A stretch of 64,000 nucleotides of DNA from a virus (IMGVR_UViG_3300035180_002703:1-64000), one strand, 5' to 3'. Counted from the first letter of the stretch, positions 31,746-53,289 are shown. A program made the numbers and translations. The notes: generated from the letters alone by a model not told the origin.

Positions 31746-31822
31746 TTGACATCGTGCGAACGGCATGATATAATATACATAGTAGTAAACGATAAGCCGC
31801 CACCGTTCGCGGGGCGCACGTT
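31746..31822 (+). promoter_or_regulatory. sigma70 promoter plus leader motif A copy 1 (31788..31822)
   Basis: TTGACA-17-TATAAT; AACG-ATAAGC-CGCC-A-CC(GTTCGC)GG-GGCG-CA-CGTT. Confidence 0.85.
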
Positions 31823-31836
31823 ATGGGGAGAGGGGT

Positions 31837-32634
31837 GTGGAGAAAGAGTACACGCAACAGTTGCTGGATCGCGCAGTGTGGAAACACCAGCGGTGGATGC
31901 GAGAGAAACGCTACGCGGCGCAGCGGCTCAATCTGTCAGACATTCAGCTGAACGGTCTCGATTTGTCGGGCCTTGACCTAAGCTACGCCATCTGCGTCAA
32001 CACGACTTTCAACAAGTGCAACCTGAAGGGCGTGAACCTGATGTTGGGTGTTGCGGCGCAGGCCCGATTCCTGGAATCGAATCTGCGAGGGGCTGATCTC
32101 TCCCATTCTATGCTGTCGGAGGCCACCTTCTGGGCGAGCATCCTGTCGGAGTCCGACTTTGGCAGCGCGAATTGCTCGGGTGCATGTTTTGACGAAGTAC
32201 TGCTTACCGGGGCGAGATTCAACAAGACCATCCTGTATGACGCAGTGTTCCGAAACGCTCACAACGTGCCGGAATCCGCTCGGGCGTTCTCCCGCATCAC
32301 TCCCGAAACCGGATCGTTCGAGATGTGGAAGAAATGCGACGGAGACGTGCTGGTGAGGCTTCTGGTTCCTGCGGATGCCCATCGGGAGAACGGGTGTTCG
32401 CGTCTACTGCGGGTCTCGAAAGCCGTTGTGCTGGAGATATTGGGGCCACACGGCGAAACGACGGTCAGAAACATGTCCGATCCAGATGTCGAGTACAAGG
32501 TCGGGGATGTTGTTACTCCGCGAGAAGGCTTCAACCCAGATTGGGAGAACGAGTATTCGGGAGGAATCCACGGATATCTGTCTCGCGCAGAGGCCGCATC
32601 ACCAGGTATTTACAAGATCGATGTTGACGAATGA
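31837..32634 (+). CDS. Pentapeptide-repeat protein with DUF5758-like C-terminal domain
   Basis: A(N/D)Lxx repeats; FEMWKKC..VRLLVPADA..LRVSKA..YKVG..GIHGYL. Confidence 0.85.
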   Translation: MEKEYTQQLLDRAVWKHQRWMREKRYAAQRLNLSDIQLNGLDLSGLDLSYAICVNTTFNKCNLKGVNLMLGVAAQARFLESNLRGADLSHSMLSEATFWASILSESDFGSANCSGACFDEVLLTGARFNKTILYDAVFRNAHNVPESARAFSRITPETGSFEMWKKCDGDVLVRLLVPADAHRENGCSRLLRVSKAVVLEILGPHGETTVRNMSDPDVEYKVGDVVTPREGFNPDWENEYSGGIHGYLSRAEAASPGIYKIDVDE

Positions 32635-32685
32635 CACAGAAGCGAAACACTTAGGCGCATACATTGGAAGAGGAGGAGAGGGAAT

Positions 32686-33060
32686 ATGGTATCGATTGTA
32701 ACTGTCGCAATGCCCGTGGAGATGGGGCAGAAGCTTGAGGAACTGCGTGCGGAATACGGACACGCATCGCGGTCGGCGATCGTTCGGATGGCGGTTGAAT
32801 CGTTCATCCGCGGCGGCGGCGTGGGTGGAGAGAAAAGCAAGTGTCCTGCTCTGACGTGGCATGCGGTATCAGATCAGTTGCCGGACGATTCGGAGGTGAA
32901 GCTCGTAACCGTTCTCGACTCACATGGTGGCCGTTGTGTGGCGACGTCCTATTACATCAAAGGCAGCTGGTACAGTGATGGCCCATACTCGTCGCTTCCT
33001 GTCATTGCATGGACCGATTGGCCGGAGGCATGGGACGGAGAGGTGAAGAAGAATGGATAA
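32686..33060 (+). CDS. Ribbon-helix-helix + DUF551-like protein
   Basis: IVTVAMP..LEEL....SRSAIVRMAV; WHAVSDQLP...VIAWTDWPE. Confidence 0.7.
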   Translation: MVSIVTVAMPVEMGQKLEELRAEYGHASRSAIVRMAVESFIRGGGVGGEKSKCPALTWHAVSDQLPDDSEVKLVTVLDSHGGRCVATSYYIKGSWYSDGPYSSLPVIAWTDWPEAWDGEVKKNG

Positions 33061-33511
33061 TGATGGATTGCAGGTCGCCGAACGAGCAGAAGAAGAGCGC
33101 GGGGGAGAAGCGATAAAGCCTGGCGATCTGGTGATCTGCGGCGTAAATGGTGATCGAGGCCGGGTTGTGCGAACTCACACCAAGCTGGTCTGGACGGATG
33201 AACCAGAGATGAAGGTGCACGAAGAGACTGTACTCACCTGCGAGCTGCCCGAATGGAGCACGGAATGGGAGTACGATGTCGATGAAGTGACCCCGGTAGA
33301 GATTGCACCGACTGGCACGAACAATGCGAACTGCAGTATTCGCGTTGGAGACGTCATCCAACTCGAAGAGACAGGTCTGCTTGCACGGGTTGAGTCTGTT
33401 ACACTCAAGACGAAAGGTACACACGATGGAGTCAAACAGTACCTAGCATTCTCGGTCGTTATCGAACCTGGGCAACGCATGGTCTTGTGGGATACCGAGG
33501 TTGATATTTAG
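33053..33511 (+). CDS. Hypothetical protein with two KOW/SH3-like units
   Basis: IKPGDLV..GRV and IRVGDVI..ARV. Confidence 0.55.
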   Translation: MDNDGLQVAERAEEERGGEAIKPGDLVICGVNGDRGRVVRTHTKLVWTDEPEMKVHEETVLTCELPEWSTEWEYDVDEVTPVEIAPTGTNNANCSIRVGDVIQLEETGLLARVESVTLKTKGTHDGVKQYLAFSVVIEPGQRMVLWDTEVDI

Positions 33512-33547
33512 ACTGCGAGGAGAACAACGACGCAAAGGAGGGTGGAA

Positions 33548-33766
33548 ATGGAGAACATCGGGCTGAAAGTCGGTGACAGGGTCGTGGTGCTGCATGACGG
33601 CGAGCCGGGCAAAGTGGTGTTTCTGTCTTCCTACGGCGGATGGACAACACTCACGGTCAAGGCTGATATTGGCGGATGTGGCACATGGATGCTGAACGGG
33701 CCGGATGCGATTGCCGAGGTGGTCCGCAAGGTGCCTGCAGAAACGGGATGTATCGCCAATGCCTGA
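33548..33766 (+). CDS. Small KOW-like protein
   Basis: LKVGDRVVVLHDGEPGKVV; RBS AAGGAGGG. Confidence 0.55.
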   Translation: MENIGLKVGDRVVVLHDGEPGKVVFLSSYGGWTTLTVKADIGGCGTWMLNGPDAIAEVVRKVPAETGCIANA

Positions 33767-33806
33767 GCTGGGGGCGTGGAGTGGAGAGGAATAGGAGGGG
33801 GAATCA

Positions 33807-34346
33807 ATGAACAAGGTCTCTCAAGAAGAAATGAAAGGAATCCTCCAGCGTCATAGTCTGTGGCTACTCACGAGCGCTGGAGGGGAGCGTGCTATGCTGG
33901 CGGGATGTGATTTGAGGGGTCTCGATCTATCGGAAGCGAACCTGGCATATGCCAACATGGCAGGCTGCATGCTCGATAATGCGAACCTTTCTCGCGCTAT
34001 GATGTCGTACGCAAACCTGGCCGACGCCACGCTGAGAGGGGTGAACGCCGTCGAGGCATCGTTCGATCGGGCCAACCTTTCTCACGCGATCCTGGCGCGG
34101 GCCGATCTGACGAATGCCAACCTGGAGTGGGCGATTTGTACGCAGACGGCATTCACCTACGCGAAGATGGATGGGATTCGGTTCTACGGCATCACGCTGG
34201 TTGGTGCATGGTTCATGGGAACGTCGGCTGTCGGCCATATGATAGAGGCTGCCAAGTATGATTTGAAGAACGCGCAGTGGACGCTCGACCGCATCGAAGA
34301 AGAGACCGAGAGACAGGCCAAACACGCACAGTTGTCGCAGTCGTAG
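33807..34346 (+). CDS. Pentapeptide-repeat protein
   Basis: ILQRHSLWL..GGERAML head, then ANLxx repeats. Confidence 0.9.
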   Translation: MNKVSQEEMKGILQRHSLWLLTSAGGERAMLAGCDLRGLDLSEANLAYANMAGCMLDNANLSRAMMSYANLADATLRGVNAVEASFDRANLSHAILARADLTNANLEWAICTQTAFTYAKMDGIRFYGITLVGAWFMGTSAVGHMIEAAKYDLKNAQWTLDRIEEETERQAKHAQLSQS

Positions 34347-34348
34347 CG

Positions 34349-34386
34349 TGCCCCAGTAAGCCGCCACCTTAGGGGGCGCATGGGCA
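34349..34386 (+). promoter_or_regulatory. Leader motif A copy 2
   Basis: CCCA-GTAAGC-CGCC-A-CC(TTAG)GG-GGCG-CA-TGGG, then AAGGAGG. Confidence 0.8.
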
Positions 34387-34398
34387 AGGAGGGGTGGG

Positions 34399-35079
34399 AT
34401 GACGAATAAGATGTCGCAGGAGAAGCTGGATCGGATTCTGGATGCACACGAGGCATGGCTGGGGAGGAAACCTGGAGGCAGAAGGGCTAGGCTGTGCGGA
34501 AAGAACATGTCGGGGCTGAACTTCGCGGGCCGTACGCTGAGGCACATCATCTTGGCAGACGCCGAACTGCACGGTGCGAACCTGTCCGGGGCCGATCTCG
34601 ACGCAGCGAATCTCAGTTGCGCGAACATGTGGAGGGTAAATGCAGAGCGAGCAACTTTCCGAGAGACGGACCTTTCTTGCGCCGATCTCTCAGGTGCGAG
34701 GCTGTTCGACGCCGATCTCGATACAGCGAATCTCAGTCACGCGAAGATGTGGGGTGCGAATGCGGAGCGGGCGGCTTTCCGAGAAGCGAACCTTTCTTGC
34801 GCCGATCTGCGGAAAGCGAACCTAGAAGGATCGGTGTTTACCCAGGCTAATCTGTCTGGAGCTCGCCTATCAGGTGCGCATATCGACGGCGCTAAGTGGA
34901 CGGACGCCGTCATGGCGATTGCGGATGTTCGCGATGTGGCTCCGACCGAGGAATTCCTGGATGCTTTTTACGATTGGAAGATATGTGTAGACAGTGCATA
35001 TACAACTTGCTGCCAGCGTTACGCAGTGGCGGTAGCCACCCAAACGAATGGCGCTGACGAAACGGAGGGGGAACAATGA
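34399..35079 (+). CDS. Pentapeptide-repeat protein
   Basis: ILDAHEAWL head; ADLSGANL repeats. Confidence 0.9.
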   Translation: MTNKMSQEKLDRILDAHEAWLGRKPGGRRARLCGKNMSGLNFAGRTLRHIILADAELHGANLSGADLDAANLSCANMWRVNAERATFRETDLSCADLSGARLFDADLDTANLSHAKMWGANAERAAFREANLSCADLRKANLEGSVFTQANLSGARLSGAHIDGAKWTDAVMAIADVRDVAPTEEFLDAFYDWKICVDSAYTTCCQRYAVAVATQTNGADETEGEQ

Positions 35080-35657
35080 AGCGAATGACACAGAAGAAGC
35101 TGAACAAGATTCTGGATGCACACGAGGCGTGGCTTAGGATGGAGAAGAAAGGGAAGAGGGCCATGCTTTGTGGAAAGAACATGTCCGGCTTGGACTTCTC
35201 GGGGCGAAAGCTGAGACACGCATGCATGGCGCATTCCGTTCTGATGTATGCGAACCTGCGGGGTGCGGATTTCTCAGATGCCATTCTGATCGACGCGATT
35301 ATGCTAGGAGCCGACGCAGAGAATGCGGTGTTCTGGAACGCGCACCTAACATCTGCAAATTTGTTGGATGCGAACCTGCGGAATGCGGACTTCACTCAGG
35401 CGATCGTTGTGGGGATTCTTCTAACGGAGGCGAACACGAAGGGGGCGATCTGGGACGACGCTGTTCGGCAATACTGGAATAAGCCCATGTGGTACTGGGA
35501 AACCGAGTTCGGAGAGTCGAAACATGACACAAACGAAACGGAGGGGGACAATGAAGCGAATGAAGCCAATGACACAGAAGGAGCTGAACAAGGTTCTGGA
35601 TGCACATCAAGCGTGGCTGAAACTGAGGAAGGGCGAGATGGCTGTCCTAGCCAGTAG
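35076..35657 (+). CDS. Pentapeptide-repeat protein
   Basis: Tandem paralogue; acidic tail overlaps the next gene. Confidence 0.85.
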   Translation: MKRMTQKKLNKILDAHEAWLRMEKKGKRAMLCGKNMSGLDFSGRKLRHACMAHSVLMYANLRGADFSDAILIDAIMLGADAENAVFWNAHLTSANLLDANLRNADFTQAIVVGILLTEANTKGAIWDDAVRQYWNKPMWYWETEFGESKHDTNETEGDNEANEANDTEGAEQGSGCTSSVAETEEGRDGCPSQ

Positions 35658-36078
35658 GAACATGTCCGGCTTGGACTTCTCGGGCAGGAACTTGTTCTTG
35701 GCAAACCTGTCTCGTGCTGATCTGCATGGCGCAAAACTGAGAGGTACGGACCTGCAGTCTTGCGACCTGAGCGGTGCGGATATGCATGATGTGGATGCAG
35801 AGGGTGCGTCATTCGAGAAGGCTCAGTTGACTCGTGCGTGCCTGAGGAAAGCGAACCTGCGCAGAGCAAATTTTAGCAAGGCGTGTCTTGCTGGCGCTGA
35901 TCTATCGGGTGCACATATCCAGAACGCAGTCTGGGATTATGCCGACATGAACTTCGGGTTTGCCAACGGAGTAATGCCGAGGGAAGAGCTGTTAGAGGCC
36001 CTGAAGCAGTGGAAGCTCCGTGTTGATGCCGAGTACGAGAAGTTCTGCGCGGATGTTGAGGAACACTCGGAGAAATAG
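35551..36078 (+). CDS. Pentapeptide-repeat protein
   Basis: RBS GGAGGGGG; VLDAHQAWL head; ANL repeats. Confidence 0.88.
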   Translation: MKRMKPMTQKELNKVLDAHQAWLKLRKGEMAVLASRNMSGLDFSGRNLFLANLSRADLHGAKLRGTDLQSCDLSGADMHDVDAEGASFEKAQLTRACLRKANLRRANFSKACLAGADLSGAHIQNAVWDYADMNFGFANGVMPREELLEALKQWKLRVDAEYEKFCADVEEHSEK

Positions 36079-36079
36079 C

Positions 36080-36159
36080 TTGACAAACCCGAAGAAGACG
36101 GGATATAATATGTACGTAGAAAGCCGATAAGACGCTACCTGTTACGGAGCGCGCGGGCT
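36080..36159 (+). promoter_or_regulatory. sigma70 promoter plus leader motif A copy 3 (36122..36159)
   Basis: TTGACA-18-TATAAT; CCG-ATAAGA-CGCT-A-CC(TGTTAC)GG-AGCG-CG-CGG. Confidence 0.8.
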
Positions 36160-36167
36160 GAGGGGGA

Positions 36168-36509
36168 ATGAGCATGAAGCGTGTGGTAAATGGCCTGCTG
36201 TACGATACCGACACTTCCCATTTGATTGCGGAGGGCTTGTCGAGAGACTATTGGGGAAGATCAGCATGGCAAGGCAGCCTGTATATCACGCCGAGGTCTC
36301 GCAGATGGTTCGTAGTGGGCCACGGCGATCCCGATAGCATCTTTTCGGGAATCCCAAATAACGAGGGGATTGTGCCAGTCGACTCCAAGTTTGTCGTGGA
36401 CATGCTCGAATACGTTGAGGAAGACGTGTTCAACATACTGCTGAAGTACAAAAGCGATCTTGGAATTCGCGATGCCGACGAAGTGCCAATTGGCACGGTC
36501 GGCTGCTAG
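36168..36509 (+). CDS. Early protein, 'YDT' paralogue family
   Basis: KRVVNGLLYDTDTS...LYITPRSRRWF. Confidence 0.75.
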   Translation: MSMKRVVNGLLYDTDTSHLIAEGLSRDYWGRSAWQGSLYITPRSRRWFVVGHGDPDSIFSGIPNNEGIVPVDSKFVVDMLEYVEEDVFNILLKYKSDLGIRDADEVPIGTVGC

Positions 36510-36524
36510 AAAGGAGAGGGAACA

Positions 36525-36872
36525 ATGAAGCAAGTCATTGACGGTATTCGCTACGATACCGAGAAGGCGGTTCCTGTTGCGCGGGTCTCCGGCAATAGCG
36601 GAACCCCGCACTGGTTCAGTGGCACGCTCTACATCACTCCGAGGTCTCGCCGGTGGTTTATGTCGGGCGATGGCGGTCCATACAGTCCGTTCGGCCAGAG
36701 CGTCGGCTGGGGCGCATACGCCAGCGGATCGGGGATCGCACCTCTAACTCCGGAGCGCGCTCGGGAGATTCTTGAGGGAGGGGATGATGAGTGCCAGAGC
36801 GCGATGGAAAGGTATGCCGAGGAGCTCGGCATCGTCGACGCGGATGACGTGAAGGAGCTGGCCACTGTCTGA
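36525..36872 (+). CDS. Early protein, 'YDT' paralogue family
   Basis: KQVIDGIRYDTEKA...LYITPRSRRWF. Confidence 0.75.
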   Translation: MKQVIDGIRYDTEKAVPVARVSGNSGTPHWFSGTLYITPRSRRWFMSGDGGPYSPFGQSVGWGAYASGSGIAPLTPERAREILEGGDDECQSAMERYAEELGIVDADDVKELATV

Positions 36873-36930
36873 TCGGTCCAGAACCCCGGGGGGGCAGGCA
36901 GAACACCCCCCGGGGGAAGAATAGAAGGGG

Positions 36931-37004
36931 TTGACAAGCCGACTATCGTATGATATAATATGTACATAGTCAAGCCGATAAGCCGCCAACAAGAGGCGCA
37001 CGGC
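36931..37004 (+). promoter_or_regulatory. sigma70 promoter plus leader motif A copy 4 (36974..37004)
   Basis: TTGACA-17-TATAAT; GCCG-ATAAGC-CGCC-A-ACAAGA-GGCG-CA-CGGC. Confidence 0.85.
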
Positions 37005-37019
37005 GAAAGGAGAGGGAAC

Positions 37020-37328
37020 ATGAACAGCACCGAGGCTCCTATGACGCTCACCGCGCTGGCCGCCGATCAGGAGTGGAACCTGGTGGAGTCGCTCAAGGGC
37101 ATCGCTGACGGGCAGCGTGTTCCAGAGACCATCGACACTCTGGTTCGTCTCGCCGAGGAGTATCAGAAGTCCGCTCGCGATAAGCTGGCCGAATCGGAAA
37201 GGCTGAAGAAGTATCCTGTATCGGCGCACTTCCTCGCTCACGAGAAGGAATGCGACGCGCTGGATGACGCTCGGGTTGCCAAGGCGTACAACGACATGGT
37301 GGATAGGCTCACGAAGTACCTGCACTGA
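37020..37328 (+). CDS. Hypothetical helical early protein
   Basis: RBS AGGAG; shares LKGIA(D/E)GQ..ET...TL with 37438..37842. Confidence 0.65.
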   Translation: MNSTEAPMTLTALAADQEWNLVESLKGIADGQRVPETIDTLVRLAEEYQKSARDKLAESERLKKYPVSAHFLAHEKECDALDDARVAKAYNDMVDRLTKYLH

Positions 37329-37329
37329 C

Positions 37330-37394
37330 TGCCGAAACCGGCTTTCGGGCCGGTCTGCACCGGGCGGCTCCCGGCGCACTGAAGAGGCAAGCCG
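37330..37394 (+). ncRNA. Type II hammerhead ribozyme 1
   Basis: TGCC-GAAA-[CCGGCT TTCG GGCCGG]-TC^-[TGCACCGGG CGGCT CCCGGCGCA]-CTGAAGA-GGCA; predicted cleavage after C37355. Confidence 0.9.
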
Positions 37395-37423
37395 ATAAGT
37401 CGCCACCTTAGGGGGCGCAACGG
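37392..37423 (+). promoter_or_regulatory. Leader motif A copy 5
   Basis: CCG-ATAAGT-CGCC-A-CC(TTAG)GG-GGCG-CAA-CGG directly after hammerhead 1. Confidence 0.8.
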
Positions 37424-37437
37424 AGGGGAGGGGAGAA

Positions 37438-37842
37438 ATGGATGACGTTGGTAGTGGTGGCTCCGTCTGGAGCGAAACCGTCTGGAAGATGCCGATGACG
37501 CTGGAGCTCCTGGAAAGACAGGCGATCGGTGCGGAAAGCGCGGCGCAGGAACACTCCGAGATTGCCAAGAGGGCTACCAGCCGGGCGGAAGCGAAGAAGG
37601 CGCGAGAGGAAGCAGATTACCTGTACGAGCTGGCCGACGAATACCGAGGGCTCGCACGTGATCTGAAGGGGATCGCGGAAGGACAGACGCTGGAAGAAAC
37701 GGTGAAGACACTGCGCAGTCTATCGCGAAGGAAGACAGGTATCCAACGACACAGGCAGTTGAGCGACTATGAGGAGATGGCAGATATTCTGTCATTCTAC
37801 CTGCGAGGATATACGGGAGAGGAGGATCACAATGAACAGTGA
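37438..37842 (+). CDS. Hypothetical helical early protein
   Basis: RBS GGAGGGGG; partial paralogue of 37020..37328. Confidence 0.6.
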   Translation: MDDVGSGGSVWSETVWKMPMTLELLERQAIGAESAAQEHSEIAKRATSRAEAKKAREEADYLYELADEYRGLARDLKGIAEGQTLEETVKTLRSLSRRKTGIQRHRQLSDYEEMADILSFYLRGYTGEEDHNEQ

Positions 37843-38494
37843 AGACACCTGGGCCAAGTGCCATGTGGACGTGGCTAACGCCGCGCTCGGTATCGCCCGC
37901 GAATACGGGCATCCGTGGGCGCATAGCTCCGTGGTTCCTCAAGCTGGGGGGTGGGAGCCAGAGGACAAGCGACCCACGCTCGAAGAAATCAAGATGCACA
38001 TCCCGTGTCGGATCGCACGCGGCGTTCTCACTCCGCGCGTCTCCTACGACGAAAACGGTTGGGTGCTGAGATTCAAGACGCCGGACGGGCGCGCGACCAT
38101 CCAGGTGTCGCATGAGACGGACCGCGACACGGAGTATTCAGTCACTGTCTGGAGGTCAGACGGATCGTGGGCGCGAGGCACGAAGTCTGGGCATTTCATC
38201 ATGGTCGGGGCCGACGACACTCGCTGGGGTATGCGCCATATGAAGGCATGGCAGCGAGCGTGGCGTGCGATTGGCATCGAGCCGCCGGAGTTTCCCGGGG
38301 TTCTCCGCGCTGAGTGGGACCTGATCGTCGACGCAGACAGTCCATTGCCAACAGGCACCGAGGATATATCGGGGGCAACCGTCCAGATCATGCCCTCGGC
38401 GCTCTTGACGGGGAGGGACCTGCTCAAACTGGTGCAGTATGCACGACACGTTATCGTCCGGGATGACGACTACCGGGCGTATCCTCTGGCATAA
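37832..38494 (+). CDS. Early protein, 'AREYG...RAW' paralogue family
   Basis: ANAALGIAREYG...WGMRHMKAWQRAWRAIG..FP; similar to 50121, 51654, 52814, 49415. Confidence 0.7.
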   Translation: MNSEDTWAKCHVDVANAALGIAREYGHPWAHSSVVPQAGGWEPEDKRPTLEEIKMHIPCRIARGVLTPRVSYDENGWVLRFKTPDGRATIQVSHETDRDTEYSVTVWRSDGSWARGTKSGHFIMVGADDTRWGMRHMKAWQRAWRAIGIEPPEFPGVLRAEWDLIVDADSPLPTGTEDISGATVQIMPSALLTGRDLLKLVQYARHVIVRDDDYRAYPLA

Positions 38495-38497
38495 CGG

Positions 38498-38526
38498 TTG
38501 ACGGGATCGGCGTGATGGGATATAAT
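38498..38526 (+). promoter_or_regulatory. sigma70 promoter of the replication operon
   Basis: TTGACG-17-TATAAT. Confidence 0.8.
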
Positions 38527-42755: not shown

Positions 42756-44127
42756 TCTGAATGATCTGGTTGTGCAGGGAAACATTCGGCGTTTGACGTT
42801 TGCCGAACGGGGCGCGTTCGACATATTATTGGAGCAGTATATCACGCGCGGAGGCTCGCTGCCGTTGGACGTGGACGAATGTTGCGATTTGGCCTCGGCG
42901 CGAACTGAGGAGGATCGGGCGGTAGTGAAGTCGACGCTGTCGGCGGCGTTTCGTGCGACCGATGATGGTTGGCGCAGCACCTGGGCCGATGGTCTCGCGG
43001 AGCGTGTCGGTCGGCGTTCGGACACCTATCGGGAGAATGCCGTGGCGCGTTGGTCGAAGTCGCGGAATGGCGTTGATATCGCTGATAATGCATGCAATAG
43101 CATCGGCGAAAATGCAATTGCAATGCAATTGCATCCGGAGAAATGCAATTGCATCGGCTCGAACGGGATCGGACCGAAAATCGCATCTGATAGTGCTGAT
43201 AATGGCGTTGATATCGCTGATAACTCATGCAATTGCATCGAATCACATGCAATTGGAATGCAATTGCATCAGGCGGAATGCAATTGCAATGCAATAGCAT
43301 CGGCGGGAATGCAATTGCATCAGGCGGAATGCAATTGCAATGCAATAGCATCAGATTGCATGAATTCGCATGGAATCGCGTCGAAAAGCGTCCAAGATGG
43401 CGATGATGACGCTGTTTCTGACGTTCCCCCCCCTTATAACCCCCCTATATACAAAGACTCTATACTAATACAAAGAGTCTTTGACTCTAAGAGACTCTCT
43501 ACCTCTGAAGACTCTATATCTAACAAAGAGTCTTGTAAGACTCTAAAAGACTATAAAGACGAAGAGAGTCTTGGCGTTGAGAAGAGAGATTGTACGAATT
43601 ACCACTCTTGCGCAAATCGCGTCGATTTTGCGCTTTTCGATGTCGAAAACGACGTTGAAGCACAGGGCGATGGCGTTGCGCAACCTGACGTCGCGAACAA
43701 CGCCACGACGCTGGACCCGGGGCACGGTGGTAGTAGTCGCTCGAAAGGATGGACCGCGGAGGAAGTGAAGGAGAAACAGTTGCGTGGCTTCAACAGGTTC
43801 TGGGAACTTCAACCCCGAAAGGTCGATAAGGCTCGGTGCTGGGCATGGTGGCAGCGCAACGTTCGCGAACGCGGCATCGCTCCGGCTATCATCAACGGCT
43901 TCAAGGCATATCTCGCCACGTGCAATCCGGAGGATAACTTCAAGTACGCGAAGCGACCCATAACCTGGCTCCGTGGTAGGTGCTGGGAGGACGAAGGGCT
44001 CGATCCTTCTGCTCTGGAGGCTGTTCTACCTGCTCGCGAACCCATCCGCGATCTCGGATTCGAGTATAGTGCAGAGAATCTCGAACGAACGCTCGGAATC
44101 TCGCTTCCACGCGCGAAAAGCGGCTAA
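42736..44127 (+). CDS. Replication initiator (YdaU/DUF1376-like N-terminus, lambda O-like layout)
   Basis: LTFAERGAFDILL..Y...GSLP; C-term FNRFW..PRKVDK, RPITWLRGRCWEDE; internal DNA repeats; precedes DnaB. Confidence 0.8.
   Translation: MKRITLDLNDLVVQGNIRRLTFAERGAFDILLEQYITRGGSLPLDVDECCDLASARTEEDRAVVKSTLSAAFRATDDGWRSTWADGLAERVGRRSDTYRENAVARWSKSRNGVDIADNACNSIGENAIAMQLHPEKCNCIGSNGIGPKIASDSADNGVDIADNSCNCIESHAIGMQLHQAECNCNAIASAGMQLHQAECNCNAIASDCMNSHGIASKSVQDGDDDAVSDVPPPYNPPIYKDSILIQRVFDSKRLSTSEDSISNKESCKTLKDYKDEESLGVEKRDCTNYHSCANRVDFALFDVENDVEAQGDGVAQPDVANNATTLDPGHGGSSRSKGWTAEEVKEKQLRGFNRFWELQPRKVDKARCWAWWQRNVRERGIAPAIINGFKAYLATCNPEDNFKYAKRPITWLRGRCWEDEGLDPSALEAVLPAREPIRDLGFEYSAENLERTLGISLPRAKSG
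43066..43575. repeat. Probable replication origin inside the initiator gene
   Basis: About eight TGCAATTGCA palindromes plus variants, duplicated AATGGCGTTGATATCGCTGATAA (43066, 43201), then an AT-rich tract with AGACTCT/AGAGTCT repeats. Confidence 0.7.
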
Positions 44128-46711: not shown

Positions 46712-46714
46712 AAA

Positions 46715-46778
46715 GCCGAAACCGGTCTTCGGGCCGGTCTATGCAGGACGGCTACCTGCATACTGAAGAGGCAAGCTT
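46715..46778 (+). ncRNA. Type II hammerhead ribozyme 2
   Basis: GCC-GAAA-[CCGGTC TTCG GGCCGG]-TC^-[TATGCAGG ACGGCTA CCTGCATA]-CTGAAGA-GGC; predicted cleavage after C46739. Confidence 0.92.
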
Positions 46779-46811
46779 CTGCATAAGTCGGCACCTTCGG
46801 GGCCGCGGCAG
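46779..46811 (+). promoter_or_regulatory. Leader motif A copy 6
   Basis: CTGC-ATAAGT-CGGC-A-CC(TTCG)GG-GCCG-CG-GCAG directly after hammerhead 2. Confidence 0.8.
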
Positions 46812-46824
46812 GTTGGAGGTAGAT

Positions 46825-47133: not shown

Positions 47134-47150
47134 CTTTGGCGTTGTGCTAG

Positions 47151-47183
47151 GCGCATAAGTCGGCACCTATCGGGCCGCGGCGC
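47151..47183 (+). promoter_or_regulatory. Leader motif A copy 7
   Basis: GCGC-ATAAGT-CGGC-A-CC(TATC)GG-GCCG-CG-GCGC. Confidence 0.8.
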
Positions 47184-47199
47184 ATGGAGGGGCGAAGGA

Positions 47200-47454
47200 A
47201 TGTCTAAGGCGGAGCGGTTGCGGGGGCTAGTGTCGAAGTTGTACGAGATGGCGGATGGTGCGGGCGTTCGCGCGGCTTATAATCAAAGCTTGGCGAATAG
47301 GGAGCGGGAGTCTGAAGTGTGGGTTGCGCCGGAGTCGCGCGCGGCATTGGTCGCTATGTACCGGGCTCAAGCTGACGCTGCGGCGAATAGGAAGCTGGAG
47401 CTAGCATGGCTTGCTAATCAGGTCGAGCAGATACTGGATCAGGAGGGGGAATGA
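47200..47454 (+). CDS. Small helical early protein
   Basis: RBS; similar layout to neighbours. Confidence 0.65.
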   Translation: MSKAERLRGLVSKLYEMADGAGVRAAYNQSLANRERESEVWVAPESRAALVAMYRAQADAAANRKLELAWLANQVEQILDQEGE

Positions 47455-47753
47455 TGGATATCGAACTGCTTCGAGTGATCGTTCAGGAACTGCGGGCCCG
47501 GGCCGCGAAACTGCAGGAAGAGGCGGGCGCATGGGCGGAGGATATGCAGAACATGGAGGCGAAGGCCGAAGCGAGTCCGGCGTTTCGCGAGGAATACTTG
47601 GAGAGTGCACGCGTGTCGAAGATATTCGCTAATGCAGGAAAGGCGCACGCGAAAGAACTGTCGGAGTTGGCGGAGCTGATCGATTCTGCCACGAACGGTT
47701 TCGCGGGCAAGGCGTTGTGCACGGCAATCGAGAGCGCGGCGCGGGCGCGCTAG
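47451..47753 (+). CDS. Small helical early protein
   Basis: RBS AGGAGG; coiled-coil-like. Confidence 0.65.
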   Translation: MMDIELLRVIVQELRARAAKLQEEAGAWAEDMQNMEAKAEASPAFREEYLESARVSKIFANAGKAHAKELSELAELIDSATNGFAGKALCTAIESAARAR

Positions 47754-47766
47754 AAGGAGGGGAGCG

Positions 47767-48318
47767 ATGGATTTCGATAGGGTCGAAGGGGTTGCGTCGG
47801 AGTTGGAGTTCCGGGCGCGAGAGTATCGCAGACTCTCTCAGGAGGCCGCGGAGGCCGCGGAGAGGGCCGAGAAGTCGGACGGTTGGCAGACTCCTGAAGA
47901 CAAGGCGCGCGAGGTGGTTCTGCACAAGGCGCGCGCGGAGTTGTACACCATGCGGGCGAGTGAGATGGAGGATATGTCTCGGCGGTTGTACGACGCGTTG
48001 TATCCTGCCGAGGAGAAGGGCTGTCCGTCGTCGAAGAACTTCGACAGTCTCCGATTTGTCATGGCGGATATGTGGCATCGCGTGCAGGAATATCGCGATA
48101 ACTCGCCGGAAATGCTGGCAGTTATCGTTCGGGCGGAGCAGGCGGATTGTTGGAAGACTGCGGAGGCCAAGGCGCGCGGGTGTGCATACTACGGGGAGTA
48201 TGCGAAGGGATACAAGGACTGGGCGCGGGAGCTTGAGGATTTGGAATACGATTTGCGATATGGGCTGTTTCCTGAAGAGTACGAGCAGGAAGAGGAAGAG
48301 GAGAAGGAGGGGGAATAA
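47767..48318 (+). CDS. Helical early protein with acidic tail
   Basis: RBS AAGGAGG; ends EEYEQEEEEEKEGE. Confidence 0.65.
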   Translation: MDFDRVEGVASELEFRAREYRRLSQEAAEAAERAEKSDGWQTPEDKAREVVLHKARAELYTMRASEMEDMSRRLYDALYPAEEKGCPSSKNFDSLRFVMADMWHRVQEYRDNSPEMLAVIVRAEQADCWKTAEAKARGCAYYGEYAKGYKDWARELEDLEYDLRYGLFPEEYEQEEEEEKEGE

Positions 48319-48596
48319 TGGACGCGAATCTGTTTTCGAAGTTCGTCTGCATGGTCAACGACCGCAAGGATGGTAAGACGTTCGGCGCGGATTTGAGGCT
48401 CAGGCCGAGTGGTCGTTTTATCCTCGTCGCTGACGAAGTCGAAGTCGCGAAGGCGCTGGGGCGGGAATACTACGACTGCGACCCGCGGAGGACTGCCATT
48501 GTCGAGATCAGCGTTCGCGATGCGTTCGCGATGATGGCGCGTGACTGTGACGAAGAGACTCTTGCGCACTATGCCCGCGTGTTGGCGCGGGCATAG
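48318..48596 (+). CDS. Early protein (paralogue of 48612..48914)
   Basis: FGADLRLRPSGRFILV...ALGR...ETLAHYA. Confidence 0.65.
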   Translation: MDANLFSKFVCMVNDRKDGKTFGADLRLRPSGRFILVADEVEVAKALGREYYDCDPRRTAIVEISVRDAFAMMARDCDEETLAHYARVLARA

Positions 48597-48611
48597 GAAG
48601 GAGGCGGAGGA

Positions 48612-48914
48612 ATGTCTGCAAAGTCGCGTTCGACGGGGTACCGAGAAGAGCGGTCGGAACATGTCTGCGTTCTCAGTACGCTATCGTACCATAATCCGTT
48701 TGGGCCGGAATTGCGGATAATGCCAGATGGCAGGTTCTTCATGGTCGGAAACGCGGGCGAGATCGCTGACGCGTTGGGACGGGATACCTGCGAAGGCAGT
48801 CGGTGGGCTAGCGTCGTTGTGTCGATCACGGCGCGCGAGGCGTTCGAACTACTGACGCGCGAAGGTGATTCGGAAACGTTGTCGCGCTATGCGTTCGCGC
48901 TAGCTGGCATGTAG
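48612..48914 (+). CDS. Early protein (paralogue of 48318..48596)
   Basis: FGPELRIMPDGRFFMV...ALGR...ETLSRYA. Confidence 0.65.
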   Translation: MSAKSRSTGYREERSEHVCVLSTLSYHNPFGPELRIMPDGRFFMVGNAGEIADALGRDTCEGSRWASVVVSITAREAFELLTREGDSETLSRYAFALAGM

Positions 48915-48938
48915 GGAAACATACCAGGCAACGAACAC

Positions 48939-49021
48939 TTGACAAGTCTTTGCGGGCGTGATATAATATGTGTGTTGGTGAACGGGAGGGGCCGGTAAGT
49001 CGCCACTACGGGGCGCGCGGT
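48939..49021 (+). promoter_or_regulatory. sigma70 promoter plus leader motif A copy 8 (48991..49021)
   Basis: TTGACA-17-TATAAT; GCCG-GTAAGT-CGCC-A-C(TACG)G-GGCG-CG-CGGT. Confidence 0.85.
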
Positions 49022-49034
49022 TCGGAGGTGTTCG

Positions 49035-49418
49035 ATGGACGCGAAGGGGCTGGCGGTTCGTGTGAACGCGTTGCAGTGGCGAATCTGGAAGGGCGTCGGG
49101 GTCGAAGTGTCTTATGATGACGCTTACCGATTGCGAGGGGCGGCGGAGAGTCTGCGCCGGTGGTATCGCATGGAATACGGAAACGGGCGCGGTCAGGTAA
49201 CGCGCGATAAGTCTGGCAGGTCGGTTTTCGTCGATTGCGTTACGACTAAGGCGAAACCGGTTCCAGATCGTGAGGCGGTGGCGTTGCGTGAGGTTATGGA
49301 GGTATGCGCAAGGTGCGGTTTGGCATACCGAACGAGCCACGATTTCCGTGGTTCGGTCTTGTTCGTGTTCTCTCAGTCGGATACTACTGCGCATCCGAAG
49401 GCGGTCGCGTGCGAATGA
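49035..49418 (+). CDS. Early protein (paralogue of 51196..51570)
   Basis: DDAYRLRGAAESLRRWY..E.G...D.RG..L. Confidence 0.7.
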   Translation: MDAKGLAVRVNALQWRIWKGVGVEVSYDDAYRLRGAAESLRRWYRMEYGNGRGQVTRDKSGRSVFVDCVTTKAKPVPDREAVALREVMEVCARCGLAYRTSHDFRGSVLFVFSQSDTTAHPKAVACE

Positions 49419-49996
49419 GACCGCGAACCGATTGGGCGCAGATCGCGCCGAAACACTGGGACCGTGTCAGCGTCGGCATGGCGAACGCTGTGCTGCGCGT
49501 GGCGCGCGTGGTACATGGCGCGCGGAATGACCTCGAAACATGGATAACGTCAAGCGCCGTACCTGTGCGGGGCGAGTGGATGGGGGAGCATCCGAAGTTG
49601 GAGGATATCGCCGAAGGGCTTTCCGTTGTCGAGGATTTGCCGTTCGTGTCTCAGTATGATGGGCGATTCCACTACTACCAGGACATTCGAGAAGGGATTT
49701 TCTCGTGTCGCGTGTCCGAGCCCGTTCATGGCGGAGCTGTCGAAACGATCATAGAAACTGGTGCGGGTTGGTCCGCGCTTGCGGGGATGGTCGATTCCGA
49801 GGGGTTCTGCGAGGTTCGCGGAAACATGGAGAAGGCGGATTCCTACTGGTACGAGGCGTGGGCGGCGATAGGTTTGACGGCACCTATGGGGCCGGTTATG
49901 AAACATGGAGAGGGAGAGTGTCTGCGGTGGTTCAAGCGCGGATACGGGCATTATGCCGGGCCCATTCAGCTGTCGTTACTCTTGGAGGCGGTCTGA
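49415..49996 (+). CDS. Early protein, divergent 'RAW' family member ending in QLSLL
   Basis: MANAVLRVAR...YEAWAAIGL; ATGA-coupled to the previous gene. Confidence 0.6.
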   Translation: MRPRTDWAQIAPKHWDRVSVGMANAVLRVARVVHGARNDLETWITSSAVPVRGEWMGEHPKLEDIAEGLSVVEDLPFVSQYDGRFHYYQDIREGIFSCRVSEPVHGGAVETIIETGAGWSALAGMVDSEGFCEVRGNMEKADSYWYEAWAAIGLTAPMGPVMKHGEGECLRWFKRGYGHYAGPIQLSLLLEAV

Positions 49997-50023
49997 ACGG
50001 GAGCACGAAAGCCGGGGGGGGGC

Positions 50024-50112
50024 TTGACAAGCTCTGTCGAGTGTGATATAATATGTGTGCAGTTGGACGGGGGGCCGATAAGTCGCCATTGCCAGTCTGG
50101 CAGGCGCGCGGT
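50024..50112 (+). promoter_or_regulatory. sigma70 promoter plus leader motif A copy 9 (50074..50112)
   Basis: TTGACA-17-TATAAT; GCCG-ATAAGT-CGCC-A-T-TGCC(AGTCT)GGCA-GGCG-CG-CGGT. Confidence 0.85.
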
Positions 50113-50120
50113 TCGGAGGA

Positions 50121-50798
50121 ATGAAGATGGACGCGGAGCAGGTTTGGGCGGCGTTGCCGGTGCGTTTGAAGAATGTGGCGCTTGCCATGGCCCGTGAGTA
50201 TAATCACGGGTGGGCCGCGTCGTCTGCAGTACCGCCGGCGGGCGAATACTGGGAGTTTCCGGAGGAGGTCCCGTCGTTGGATCAGATCAAGGCGGGAACT
50301 CCTGAAGGACCGCGCGGGCGTGGTATCGCCGGCCCGTGCGTGTCGGGAGCTGACGGATTCTTGTACATTACTCATGGCTCGGCCACGGGCAGGCTGCTCA
50401 TTATCGTTCGGTATTCGGAGCAGGAGGGCGAGCGGTATACCGTGCGCATCGCTCGTCCGAACGGGAGGAACGCGCAGGGAACATACTGCGTGGATCAGCA
50501 GCAGTATGCCGGGAGCGCGGAGGCTACCGCGTGGGGCCCGCGGCATTTTGCCGCGTGGCATCGCGCGTGGGGAGTGCTTGGCCTTTCTCCGGCGTTCCCG
50601 GAACTCGCGCGAGAGTGGGAGTTCGACTTGACGGAGGAAGGAATCCCGAATGACGGGCGGTTGGAGTTTGCGACCGTTCACCTGCGGGCGGGAGCCCGTC
50701 CGCGGGCGGAGGACTTGTATGATTGTCTTCGCATCGCTGACGCAGTCTATGTTCACGGGGCGAACGGAGGAGTCGCCCGGATAGTTGCGCAGGACTGA
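50121..50798 (+). CDS. Early protein, 'AREYG...RAW' paralogue family
   Basis: VWAALP...AREY...WGPRHFAAWHRAWGVLGL..FP. Confidence 0.7.
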   Translation: MKMDAEQVWAALPVRLKNVALAMAREYNHGWAASSAVPPAGEYWEFPEEVPSLDQIKAGTPEGPRGRGIAGPCVSGADGFLYITHGSATGRLLIIVRYSEQEGERYTVRIARPNGRNAQGTYCVDQQQYAGSAEATAWGPRHFAAWHRAWGVLGLSPAFPELAREWEFDLTEEGIPNDGRLEFATVHLRAGARPRAEDLYDCLRIADAVYVHGANGGVARIVAQD

Positions 50799-50839
50799 TC
50801 GGCGGGAGCAGGTTCGGGCGCGTGCAGGTGCGGGCGAGG

Positions 50840-51080
50840 GGCGCAGAGTCTCTCGCTCGTGCTTGCGCGTGCTCGTGCGTGTCGGGCGCGTACGCGGGCG
50901 CATACGGTCGGGCGCGTGTTCGTGGTACCCGCGGGCGTTCGCGCGCGTCTCCGTCGATCCTGGCGCGATTATGGCGCATTCTGGCAGGGGCCCGGGCCGT
51001 CGTGCGTGCGTGCGTGCGTGTTCGCGTGCGTGCGTTCGCGTGTTGCCGTCTATGGTATCTGGCAATAGGCGAAACATACC
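50840..51080 (+). repeat. Dispersed intergenic repeat with (GTGC)n microsatellite, copy 1
   Basis: Near-identical blocks at 52290..52705, including TCTGGCAATAGGCGAAACATAC before the -35. Confidence 0.75.
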
Positions 51081-51102
51081 GGGATAATCTTTCGGGCAGG
51101 GC

Positions 51103-51182
51103 TTGACAGGTTCGGCGGCGCATGGTAGTATATATGCATAACTACCGATAAGTCGTCACTACCGAGAGGCAGGGCGCGCGGT
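51103..51182 (+). promoter_or_regulatory. sigma70 promoter plus leader motif A copy 10 (51144..51182)
   Basis: TTGACA-17-TAGTAT; ACCG-ATAAGT-CGTC-A-hairpin(GAGA)-GGCG-CG-CGGT. Confidence 0.8.
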
Positions 51183-51195
51183 GCGGAGGGGTGAC

Positions 51196-51570
51196 ATGGA
51201 CGCATACGATAAGACCGAACTCGTTCGGTTGCGGATTCTCGCCGGGTGCGGTGTCAAGCTTGCCTTTGATGATGCGCAGACTCTGCGCCGGGCCGCGCGA
51301 ACGCTTCGCCGCTGGTACGAGGCGGAATGTGGGGATGCATCGGGCGTCGTTTTCCGCGGGCCGGGCGGTAAGCCGTTCCGCGAGTCTTATACGGGCGCGT
51401 CTGTTCCCGTACGCGATATGGAGTCTGGCGCGGTCCGCCGCGTGCAGGAGGTTTGTACGCGGTATGGGCTAAGCTATAAGCTGAACACGGACCCGCGCGG
51501 CGGCGTGCTATATGTTACGTCTCCCGCGTTGTCGTTAGATTATTCGTTCGGTGTGCCCGTCGACGTTTGA
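51196..51570 (+). CDS. Early protein (paralogue of 49035..49418)
   Basis: DDAQTLRRAARTLRRWYEAECG...DPRG..LY. Confidence 0.7.
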   Translation: MDAYDKTELVRLRILAGCGVKLAFDDAQTLRRAARTLRRWYEAECGDASGVVFRGPGGKPFRESYTGASVPVRDMESGAVRRVQEVCTRYGLSYKLNTDPRGGVLYVTSPALSLDYSFGVPVDV

Positions 51571-51602
51571 TGGGGCGCAGGTTCGGGCGGGGTGCTGGTA
51601 GT

Positions 51603-51640
51603 CGCCGGTAAGGCGCTAACGCGAAGGCGGGCGCGCGGCG
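51603..51640 (+). promoter_or_regulatory. Leader motif A copy 11
   Basis: CGCCG-GTAAGG-CGCT-A-A-CGC(GAAG)GCG-GGCG-CG-CGGCG, then AGGAGG. Confidence 0.8.
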
Positions 51641-51653
51641 CAGGAGGGATTCG

Positions 51654-52058
51654 ATGGATTCTCATGAGGTGTGGGCGGCGCTTCCGGAGCATGTGCGCGA
51701 AGTGGCGCAACGCATCGCGCGCGAATACGGGCCGAATGTCTCTCTTTCCGAGTCGGCGTTCGAGTGTTGCGGCGGGTTGTGTTGGGGATACCGCGGGTAT
51801 GACGGGGCCCGATTCTATATCGCGATACTCTGGACCGAGGATAGGGGGTTGCGGTGCTTCGTTGGGGTCGACGGATACCTGCCGCATATCGCATATGGTT
51901 CGTGTTCGCTGACGGACGGGAAACTGCTTGAGCATCATGCAGACTCGGGAGAGTGGCAGGACCGTCACTATGCGGCGTGGCGTCGCGCGTGGGGCGCAGT
52001 CGGGTTGTCTGTGCCGTTTCCGGGAGCGGCGCAGGAGGTTCGCTATGATTGTCTGTGA
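51654..52058 (+). CDS. Early protein, 'AREYG...RAW' paralogue family
   Basis: VWAALP...IAREYG...RHYAAWRRAWGAVGL..PFP. Confidence 0.7.
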   Translation: MDSHEVWAALPEHVREVAQRIAREYGPNVSLSESAFECCGGLCWGYRGYDGARFYIAILWTEDRGLRCFVGVDGYLPHIAYGSCSLTDGKLLEHHADSGEWQDRHYAAWRRAWGAVGLSVPFPGAAQEVRYDCL

Positions 52059-52254
52059 TTATCACTCCAAGGGCCGGGGCGCGTCGTTCTCCGGGTCTCG
52101 GGTGACTATTCGGACCGCTTCAGGCAGTGTAGTCGACGTTATCTACGTGCCGTCATGGTACGGTTTGAGGTACCTGCGGCAGCATCCGTCTGGTACATAC
52201 GGGCGCAGGTTCTCGGCGGCGTGCGCGCGGGCCCGGGAGTTGGATCAGGGCTAA
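52045..52254 (+). CDS. Small hypothetical protein
   Basis: RBS AGGAGG; MIVCDYHSKGRG... Confidence 0.5.
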   Translation: MIVCDYHSKGRGASFSGSRVTIRTASGSVVDVIYVPSWYGLRYLRQHPSGTYGRRFSAACARARELDQG

Positions 52255-52289
52255 GCGCGGTTCTCGGCGGGCGCAGTAAGCGGGCGGGA

Positions 52290-52705
52290 GGCGCAGAGTC
52301 TCTCGCCCGTTCGCGTGCGTGCGTGCTCGTGCTCGTGCTCGTGCGTGCGTGCGTGTCGGGCGCGTACGCGGGCGCATACGGTCGGGCGCGTGTCGCAGGT
52401 ACCTGCGGGCGTTCGCGCGCGTCTCCGTCGATCCTGGAGCGGTTGCGGCGCATTCTGTCGCGGTGGTAGTCTGTCGGCGGCGTGTTCGCGTGTCGGTCGT
52501 TCGCGCGTGCGTGTTCGCGTGCACTACCTGCCGGGCGCGGTGGTAGTCTACCTGCCGGCGGCGCGGGCTGGATCGGGCGGCGCAGGTACCACGGCGGGCG
52601 CGTCGTGCTCGTGCTCGTGCGTGCGTATGCGTGCGTGCGTATGCGTGCGCGTGCGTGTTCGCGTGCGCGTTGCCGGGGGGTTGTCTGGCAATAGGCGAAA
52701 CATAC
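52290..52705 (+). repeat. Dispersed intergenic repeat with (GTGC)n microsatellite, copy 2
   Basis: See 50840..51080. Confidence 0.75.
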
Positions 52706-52727
52706 TAAGTTTTTTTAGTCGCGGCTA

Positions 52728-52806
52728 TTGACTCGGCGCGCGCGGCGTGGTATTATCTATGCATAACAACCGGTAAGGCGCTATCGCAAAGGCGAGGCGC
52801 GCGGTT
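52728..52806 (+). promoter_or_regulatory. sigma70 promoter plus leader motif A copy 12 (52768..52806)
   Basis: TTGACT-17-TATTAT; AACCG-GTAAGG-CGCT-A-TCGC(AAAG)GCGA-GGCG-CG-CGGTT. Confidence 0.8.
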
Positions 52807-52813
52807 CGGAGGA

Positions 52814-53203
52814 ATGAAAATGGACGCTCTGCAGCAGGTTCGCGAAGCATGGGCCGGTCTGCCGTACCTGGTGAAGGCGCGCGCGGGCGCGGTGGCGGCA
52901 GTGTTCAACGTCGACGAGCCTTCTGACTATGCGTTTGTCGGTTCAGACGGTGCCTATGGCTGGTCGTGTGCGGTAGTTCCGAGCGGGCTTTCTGTTCTCA
53001 TTCGTTCCCGGGCGTCCGGTATGCTCCTGGTCGTTACTGTGTACAACGAGGAAGGGCAGGCTATCACGGCGTCGATCGGAGAGGACATGTTCGAAACTAC
53101 AACGATCGGTACGGAGTGGGGGCCGCGGCAAGCGGCGCTTTGGAATCAGGTTTGGGCGGTTCTCGGATACCGTATGCCGTTTCCTGTTCCCGTGAAGTGC
53201 TAG
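52814..53203 (+). CDS. Early protein, 'RAW' paralogue family
   Basis: AWAGLP...WGPRQAALWNQVWAVLGYRMPFP. Confidence 0.7.
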   Translation: MKMDALQQVREAWAGLPYLVKARAGAVAAVFNVDEPSDYAFVGSDGAYGWSCAVVPSGLSVLIRSRASGMLLVVTVYNEEGQAITASIGEDMFETTTIGTEWGPRQAALWNQVWAVLGYRMPFPVPVKC

Positions 53204-53249
53204 GCGTGCAAGGGCCGGGCGGGGCGCAAGCTCCGCTCGGCTTGCAGGT

Positions 53250-53289
53250 CGCCGGTAAGTCGCTAACGCCGGAAGGCGGGCGCGCGGCG
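53250..53289 (+). promoter_or_regulatory. Leader motif A copy 13
   Basis: CGCCG-GTAAGT-CGCT-A-A-CGCC(GGAA)GGCG-GGCG-CG-CGGCG, then AGGAGG. Confidence 0.8.

Follow-up and report, generated by a model that had tools for sequence, protein, structure and literature searches.

The stretch of DNA analysed here, called the window, comprises the first 64 kb (positions 1-64000) of the 74,464-bp IMG/VR virus record IMGVR_UViG_3300035180_002703, and nearly all of its genes lie on the + strand. About 45 + strand genes are situated at 31.7-53.5 kb, and only 13 of them are preceded by a structured element of ~31-39 nucleotides (nt), named motif A. The first-pass annotation, made from the sequence alone, had claimed 13 such copies; all of them were found, 0-3 nt from the proposed starts and all on the + strand. 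Motif A consists of a helix P1 (4-5 base pairs, bp), the loop R-Y-A-A-G-N, a helix P2, a bulged A, an apical hairpin, P2', the dinucleotide C-R and P1'. In P2, a C-G and a G-C pair are followed by two covarying pairs, and P1 is free to covary.

Seven copies follow sigma70 promoters that scored 10-12 out of 12, the copies being located 5-15 nt from the predicted start sites. They are copy 1 (31788-31822, 41.2 bits with the covariance model R2 described below and supported by its fold; promoter 31746-31774), situated before a gene of a pentapeptide-repeat/DUF5758 protein with the start codon GTG at 31837; copy 3 (36123-36157, 39.9 bits; promoter 36080-36109; gene start 36168); copy 4 (36974-37004, 41.1 bits; promoter 36931-36959; gene start 37020); copy 8 (48991-49021, 35.4 bits; promoter 48939-48967; gene start 49035); copy 9 (50074-50112, 29.7 bits; promoter 50024-50052; gene start 50127); copy 10 (51144-51182, 34.9 bits; promoter 51103-51131; gene start 51196) and copy 12 (52769-52805, 29.2 bits; promoter 52728-52756; gene start 52820). 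Two copies directly follow hammerhead ribozymes, namely copy 5 (37391-37424, 38.0 bits; gene start 37438) and copy 6 (46779-46811, 37.9 bits; gene start 46825). The four remaining copies are plainly intercistronic: copy 2 (34352-34384, 43.0 bits), 5 nt past the upstream stop codon and before a pentapeptide-repeat gene (ATG 34399); copy 7 (47151-47183, 40.5 bits; gene start 47200); copy 11 (51604-51639, 24.0 bits; gene start 51654) and copy 13 (53251-53288, 27.6 bits), which precedes a short open reading frame (ORF) starting at 53303 and then a strong terminator at 53533-53567.

Since MAFFT left the 3' halves of the copies unaligned, a covariance model (R1) was bootstrapped instead from only three copies of equal length and run with the filters off. 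R1 recovered 13/13 copies with 17-49 bits, the next match reaching 10.9 bits when the hairpin at 49868-49899 is set aside. This hairpin has no TAAG and scored 18.8 bits with R1 and 9.3 bits with R2, and it was rejected as a member. Model R2, built from 24 true copies, resulted in 13 copies with 24-43 bits, all on the + strand, and the next match in the window had 14.8 bits. With R1, no copy was detected in the last 11 kb of the genome. No match at E <= 0.05 was obtained in 700 kb of unrelated viral loci; this negative control consisted of the chance loci of an antisense-pattern scan of viral contigs, and none of the 80 matches listed holds the motif. The pattern scan of bacterial genomes gave only single chance matches to motif A.

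The covariation was determined with an alignment of 28 copies (A9), 13 from the window and 15 from relatives. Standard pairs were present in 96.3% of the cells of A9, which was fitted to the model and in this way favours pairing, compared with 77.4% after shuffling. Both sides changed in 8 of the 10 pairs, none of 500 shuffles reached any of the measures, and when the pairing partners were slid by 1-3 columns only 40-55% of the cells paired. A similar result was obtained with the alignment A6. All four pairs of P1 covary (e.g. C-G in 17 and G-C in 8 copies, or G-C in 12 and C-G in 11), and so do the two inner pairs of P2, U-G included. The covariation signal is considered real because the slid controls and the independent folds of single sequences agree. 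In nearly every case, the single-copy folds consisted of P1, the internal loop, P2, the bulged A and an apical hairpin (P3); the G of UAAG was often paired with the invariant 3' C, leaving N bulged. P2 plus P3 comprise 6-9 bp, and the apical hairpin was found to vary in both length and sequence, as the first-pass annotation had described. P1 and P2 also covary in the way which the same annotation had proposed, U-G and G-U pairs included.

The unpaired bases remained nearly constant. In A9, the loop positions A7 and A8 as well as the bulged A were conserved in 28/28 copies, and the 3' C in 27/27 copies reaching that position, the 28th copy being cut short. Position Y6 was U in 25 and C in 3 copies, and G9 was present in 27/28. 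The complete invariance of TAAG, the bulged A and the 3' C suggested earlier thus holds for 13/13 copies in the window, but not for the relatives, where the loop reads YAAG (C in 3/28) and AAU occurs in one or two copies.

About 10 G-U cells of the alignment would become C-A mismatches on the opposite strand. The G-U pairs and the lack of minus-strand matches indicate an RNA element and not a DNA palindrome, in line with the earlier proposal that motif A is not a DNA operator; the strand specificity and the covariation of both stems point in the same direction. Motif A is a genuine strand-specific structured RNA and represents a new leader family. As had been supposed, the family was not recognised by existing models: no Rfam 15 match was obtained on any copy at the gathering score, no family was found on motif A at E <= 10 over 31000-54500, and a scan of 431 nt with lax filters did not result in a match either.

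Several known elements were compared with motif A and rejected. A kink-turn needs a 3-nt bulge with tandem sheared G-A/A-G pairs, and the opposite strand is here C-R, never GA. A lambdoid nut site, in which the apical loop of boxB is a conserved GNRA-like pentaloop, was dismissed because boxA is missing and neither the length nor the sequence of the apical hairpin is fixed. An RNase III site of the T7 type needs about two helical turns (20 bp or more), which the helices of motif A do not reach. Two further likenesses, one between GCAAGUCG and the h5/h6 junction of 16S rRNA and one between UAAG and the 5' portion of an extended Shine-Dalgarno (SD) sequence, were dropped as unsupported.

The first-pass annotation had located the copies close to strong SD sequences and confined them to the early region. 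The distance from the end of the motif to the start codon is 10-16 nt (median 14), and the SD is located 1-5 nt past P1'. The copies form two blocks (31.8-37.4 and 46.8-53.3 kb) which flank the replication module; that these blocks are early was itself a presumption of the claim. Sigma70 promoters at 38498, 39085 and 46166, preceding the genes of the replication module, are without motif A. The comparison of motif-bearing and motif-free promoters and gaps indicates that motif A marks a gene class and not every promoter or gap. The downstream genes are mutually unrelated, encoding two pentapeptide-repeat proteins, several small uncharacterised proteins and two paralogue families; gene duplication alone does not explain the repeats. 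Motif A forms the 5' leader of some of the phage's early genes, putatively those serving host takeover or anti-defence, the anti-defence role being deduced only from the pentapeptide repeats and the small ORFs. Four pentapeptide-repeat genes assigned by Pfam (31837, with a C-terminal DUF5758, 33807, 34399 and 35076) are clustered in the first motif A block at 31837-35657, and their products are candidate DNA-mimic or anti-defence proteins.

In the early promoters, the stretch right after the -10 box is conserved and partly palindromic (31775-31787, 36110-36121, 36960-36972, 51132-51143 and 52757-52767) and contains the words ATATGTACATAG, ATATGCATAAC and ATATGTACGTAG. A DNA-binding repressor may use this stretch as its operator, as with the repeats of the Aca14 type which overlap the -10; alternatively, the initial transcribed sequence may be conserved for itself. 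In metagenome contigs, copy 13 is connected directly with copy 8 (53263 to 49008) and 49028-53506 is skipped. Among strains, breaks due to recombination or assembly thus fall at copies of motif A.

The two hammerheads noted earlier upstream of motif A were both detected on the + strand as Hammerhead_II (RF02276). Hammerhead 1 (37330-37397) scored 38.7 bits, above the gathering score of 37, with the predicted cleavage after 37355. Hammerhead 2 (46714-46780) scored 31 bits (E 0.009), below gathering, with the predicted cleavage after 46739, and its core GAAA, GUC and CUGAAGA is intact. The architecture is that of type II, with a core of GAAA, GUC and CUGANGA, closed stems I and III and an open stem II. 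In type II hammerheads, loop I forms a pseudoknot with the tail that follows stem II (PMC3088659). The pseudoknot tail AGCCG of hammerhead 1 doubles as the 5' strand of P1 in copy 5, and in relatives the hammerhead and motif A overlap by 0-4 nt. The shared nucleotides suggest sequential folding, in which the ribozyme would form first and the leader second.

Relatives of the window's phage were found by a pattern scan of IMG/VR, and the resulting contigs were then searched with the covariance model. The genomes G001-G005 held 2-5 copies of motif A each, three copies were detected in G011, which was found by a hammerhead-plus-motif pattern, and one in the metagenome contig L339. The order common to these relatives is a TTGACA-N17-TATAGT promoter or Hammerhead_II, followed by the motif, the SD and ATG. 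Hammerhead_II scored 42-54.5 bits directly upstream of the motif copies of relatives, and the module of hammerhead, motif A and SD is present in five genomes. About 15 proteins of the early module are common to the relatives and the window (30-90% identity), and the structural genes of the relatives differ. A scan with the single protein TerL found no relatives. Of the TerL relatives, which also occur at 81% and 66% identity, the phages at 40% identity from a profile scan were checked and had no motif A. The lack of the motif in the 40% phages indicates that it is the early module, rather than the structural genes, with which motif A is passed on. The arrangement of motif A is conserved across divergent phages, being the same in G001-G005 and G011 at protein identities of only 30-65%.

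Direct terminal repeats of 107 bp and 127 bp were detected in G003 (37949 bp) and L346/G011 (38487 bp), respectively, for which CheckV estimated a completeness of ~49%. Both are probably complete 38-kb genomes which were judged against 74-kb relatives. The motif cluster of G011 is located 3.8-4.6 kb from one end and is transcribed inward, which fits an early region.

It is most likely that the phage controls the 13-gene group together via motif A, and the reading which fits the results best is that of a structured operator in the 5' untranslated region, through which a trans-acting factor would set the access of ribosomes to an early regulon. We give this reading roughly even chances; both the binding of the factor and its effect on translation initiation are what we infer from the display of unpaired bases, the fixed position of the motif relative to the SD and the multi-copy, class-specific distribution. 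Each unit would start from a 5' boundary, formed by a sigma70 start site, a hammerhead cut or the end of the previous cistron, and continue with the motif, the SD and the start codon. The factor would read the unpaired AA, the bulged A and the 3' C on the conserved helical scaffold. As the base of the helix abuts the SD, its occupancy would decide the loading of the 30S subunit, and all genes of the set would be adjusted jointly, most plausibly by being shut down after the early phase. Among the functions listed in the first-pass annotation, a translational operator is thus favoured by the SD spacing and the invariant unpaired bases, whereas an antiterminator and a pure 5' stabiliser are counted against. 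A more speculative reading is that motif A itself docks on the 30S subunit and in this way enhances bacterial translation.

A number of results weigh against the operator. The thermodynamic z-scores of single motif copies were unremarkable. Among ~40 early and middle proteins searched with Pfam and PHROGs, no RNA-binding, helix-turn-helix (HTH) or Aca-like protein was found. The protein encoded at 32686-33057 had a sub-threshold match to RHH_1 (19.9 bits, cut-off 20.5) without PDB support, and its part conserved in relatives is the C-terminal region and not the RHH. By eye, the promoter spacers contained no shared inverted repeat resembling motif A, and the four intercistronic copies imply that a defined 5' end is not obligatory. 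For the protein of 33053-33508, an Atlas look-up resulted only in weak structural leads of the Tudor/CarD type, obtained with a model of low confidence. This protein and the one at 32686 were both considered as partners and rejected, since their co-occurrence with the motif is shared by the entire mosaic early module and is not specific.

A similar type of control is exerted by the T4 RegA protein, which represses the translation of many early mRNAs. The proposed system resembles it in that one factor would act at the ribosome-binding site (RBS) region of many unrelated early mRNAs. The RegA sites are unstructured and AU-rich and overlap the AUG, whereas motif A is GC-rich and folded and lies upstream of the SD; its end at 10-16 nt before the start codon also led to the rejection of a RegA operator as such.

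Of the documented systems, the Aca proteins come closest as a precedent. Aca2 and Aca1 are small phage regulators that bind structured RNA motifs beginning immediately past the start sites of operons for anti-defence; the RBS is blocked by Aca2, and the control of several operons is predicted for the Aca proteins, among them the RHH member Aca14 (PMC13551039). Like motif A, the Aca motifs are structured, covarying hairpins after strong early promoters and before genes of anti-defence type, a role which is putative for the genes of the window, where 7/13 copies lie 5-15 nt from a predicted start site. However, Aca1 binds one small hairpin and Aca2 two hairpins, both derived from the inverted repeat of the promoter, and neither an HTH Aca gene nor a matching DNA operator was found here. 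Motif A also differs in having 13 copies per genome, six of them away from a promoter, and in being coupled to ribozymes. The membership of motif A in the Aca family is not supported.

The trans-acting factor could in the window's phage be an RNA. A candidate anti-leader small RNA unit is located at 56581-56709 on the + strand and comprises a TTGACA-18-TATAAC promoter (56581-56610) and a 14-bp terminator (56671-56703) followed by AUUCUUU. The leaders would according to this explanation be hit by a phage small RNA of ~93 nt, transcribed from this promoter and ended at 56671-56709. The 8-nt loop UAGCUUAU of its hairpin holds the complement of AUAAG and would kiss the AUAAG loop of the leader, after which the pairing would spread through GCUUAUCGGC over P1 and the loop and through CCGUGCGCC over P2'-CR-P1', which is situated 14-23 nt ahead of the start codon. 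The 30S subunit would in this way be blocked, or the mRNA would be led to decay. The segment 56637-56658 is antisense to both arms of motif A and an exact complement of the arms of copy 4: GCUUAUCGGC is exactly antisense to P1 plus the loop of that copy (10 nt), and CCGUGCGCC, situated 13 nt upstream of the 5'-arm complement, to its 3' arm (9 nt). By our own estimate, the chance of finding both complements to copy 4 in 74 kb is far below 1e-4. The placement of the invariant-loop complement in a hairpin loop and the presence of a promoter and a terminator also speak for the explanation, and so does the fact that U and G face the variable R and N, which allows 7-9 copies to pair over ~19 nt with wobbles. 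The fold of the unit had a z-score of -3.3. The mean cofold energy was -14.7 kcal/mol with the motif leaders and -9.2 kcal/mol with 30 other leaders (p = 3e-4), a test which is partly circular because the element at 56.6 kb clearly derives from motif A; plain duplexfold energies gave no discrimination in this GC-rich genome.

On the other hand, no counterpart of the unit was detected in G001-G005 or G011, of which the terminal repeats suggest that G003 and G011 are complete, therefore, the unit cannot explain the conservation of motif A across the group. Four copies (P1 AACG, CCCA, CUGC and GCGC) pair with it through the loop only. The element may have remained as a relic after a leader copy was inverted and lost internal sequence, or it could equally be the leader of the late operon with an attenuating terminator, which would be made constitutively rather than late. 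The unit directly precedes the packaging genes, and its natural variants occur only at 56686 and 56688, in the loop of the terminator. The antisense explanation, being compatible with the operator as its factor in this phage, is possible but on the whole unlikely, and it is similarly doubtful that the RNA of 56617-56709 is a real regulator there. A temporal switch made of RNA only, in which this one small RNA would silence the early regulon of 13 leaders and the hammerheads would cut polycistronic RNA into leader-headed units, appears improbable.

The phages P1 and P7 encode the c4 antisense RNA with the a2/b2 targets, and the c4 family is in Rfam. The 56.6 kb unit resembles c4 in that two short stretches of a small RNA of the phage are complementary to a leader close to the RBS. 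In contrast to c4, it had no Rfam match, has 13 dispersed targets instead of one and is not conserved in the relatives.

Upstream of the unit, at 53570-56560, lies a 3-kb A-poor array of few short words with an AT skew down to -0.42. It is situated between two strong terminators (53533-53567 and 56671-56709) with the common tail CCGCC-ATTCTTT. The word GGCGCTTACC, antisense to GGUAAG-CGCC (the motif minus N), occurs 10 times in the array and nowhere else in the genome, and several weak minus-strand matches of R2 were located inside it. Metagenome contigs contain many internal joints in the array, so its length varies. The array with its GGCGCTTACC words might be a further antisense or sponge RNA.

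Explanations without a dedicated trans-acting regulator were considered as well. Motif A could be a passive cis element, i.e. an insulator or standby hairpin by which the SD stays unpaired and unaffected by the sequence upstream, perhaps with protection of the 5' end. The SD is invariably adjacent to the motif, the motif is found 5-15 nt from the predicted start sites, and the hammerhead-motif-SD module recurs in five genomes, all of which would be expected of such an element. The synthetic RiboJ insulator, composed of a ribozyme, a hairpin and an RBS and reportedly described by Lou et al. in 2012, is said to work as a passive insulator; the hammerhead-linked copies have the same order of parts and presumably the same context-free effect on the RBS, but motif A is natural, has invariant unpaired bases and is without a ribozyme in 11/13 copies of the window. 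A plain hairpin has no need of conserved unpaired bases, yet AA, the bulged A and the 3' C stay even where the stems were rewritten across phages. A strong SD precedes every gene of the region anyway, with or without motif A. Moreover, an mRNA cleaved by the hammerhead would already begin with the stem I hairpin, so in the hammerhead-linked copies motif A would be a second and redundant stabiliser of the 5' end. The purely passive role is thus regarded as quite unlikely.

Still less is to be said for a processing signal, in which a host or phage endoribonuclease would cut the internal loop so that upstream mRNAs end in a hairpin and downstream mRNAs get short leaders. In phage T7, RNase III cuts the R sites between the early genes (R0.3 to R1.3). 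Motif A resembles these sites as a repeated hairpin with a conserved asymmetric internal loop, located between early cistrons and just past early promoters like R0.3, and the position of the motif cluster at 3.8-4.6 kb from one genome end in relatives carrying terminal repeats agrees with this. However, motif A is much shorter, its 10-14 bp helix with a lower stem of 4-5 bp being too short for RNase III, and the cleavage is supplied by the predicted hammerheads, whose cut 35-40 nt upstream makes a second one redundant; the signal is therefore judged very improbable. The location just downstream of early promoters and the compact pocket of the internal loop would also suit a nut- or put-like antiterminator or a small-ligand riboswitch. 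In contrast, the 13 copies belong to operons of one to three genes, six do not adjoin a promoter, the sequence is unconstrained in the apical loop, through which boxB is recognised, boxA is missing, nothing downstream is able to form an alternative terminator or to sequester the SD, and no riboswitch family matched at E <= 10. An element acting on transcription or binding a ligand is accordingly hardly credible at all.

Besides the genes marked by motif A, recognisable functions in the window were assigned to a beta clamp (30017), a primase-like protein (42736), DnaB (44232) and TerL (57701). A near-perfect palindrome at 43279-43350 lies inside the primase-like gene, forming a long hairpin which scores on both strands and could be an origin-type structure; the match to mir-33 at this position (E 0.005) was rejected as spurious. 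The proteins of 25453-27300 and 23817-24122 are 90-92% identical to their counterparts in G001 and G003, compared with 30-65% for other shared genes, which suggests that a module for tail fibres or host range was exchanged recently; a protein with a beta-helix is encoded at 24129. DNA of the window's phage is present in metagenomes of sediments and microbial mats. Megablast of the window against GenBank phages gave no match and no near relative, and tblastn of a conserved early protein gave only remote matches to Paracoccus and Lactobacillus phages; consequently, neither a cultured relative nor a host emerged from these searches.

Motif A is a new, well-supported phage RNA family with at least 30 copies in at least seven phage contigs. 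It would provide one of the few examples of a regulon whose members are tagged at the post-transcriptional level by a single structured leader, with up to 13 copies per genome. The genes marked in this way, which include pentapeptide-repeat proteins and many products of no assigned function, form a defined candidate set for host takeover or anti-defence. The fusion with hammerheads gives the type II ribozymes a clear job in the production of leader-headed, individually translatable early mRNAs, and the combination of hammerhead and motif A is a natural counterpart of RiboJ, a widely used part of synthetic biology. If the partner of motif A is a protein, the idea of RNA-binding regulators, recently shown for Aca1 and Aca2, would come to include another fold and a greater number of genes; if it is an antisense RNA, the early genes would constitute an unusual phage regulon controlled by a small RNA.

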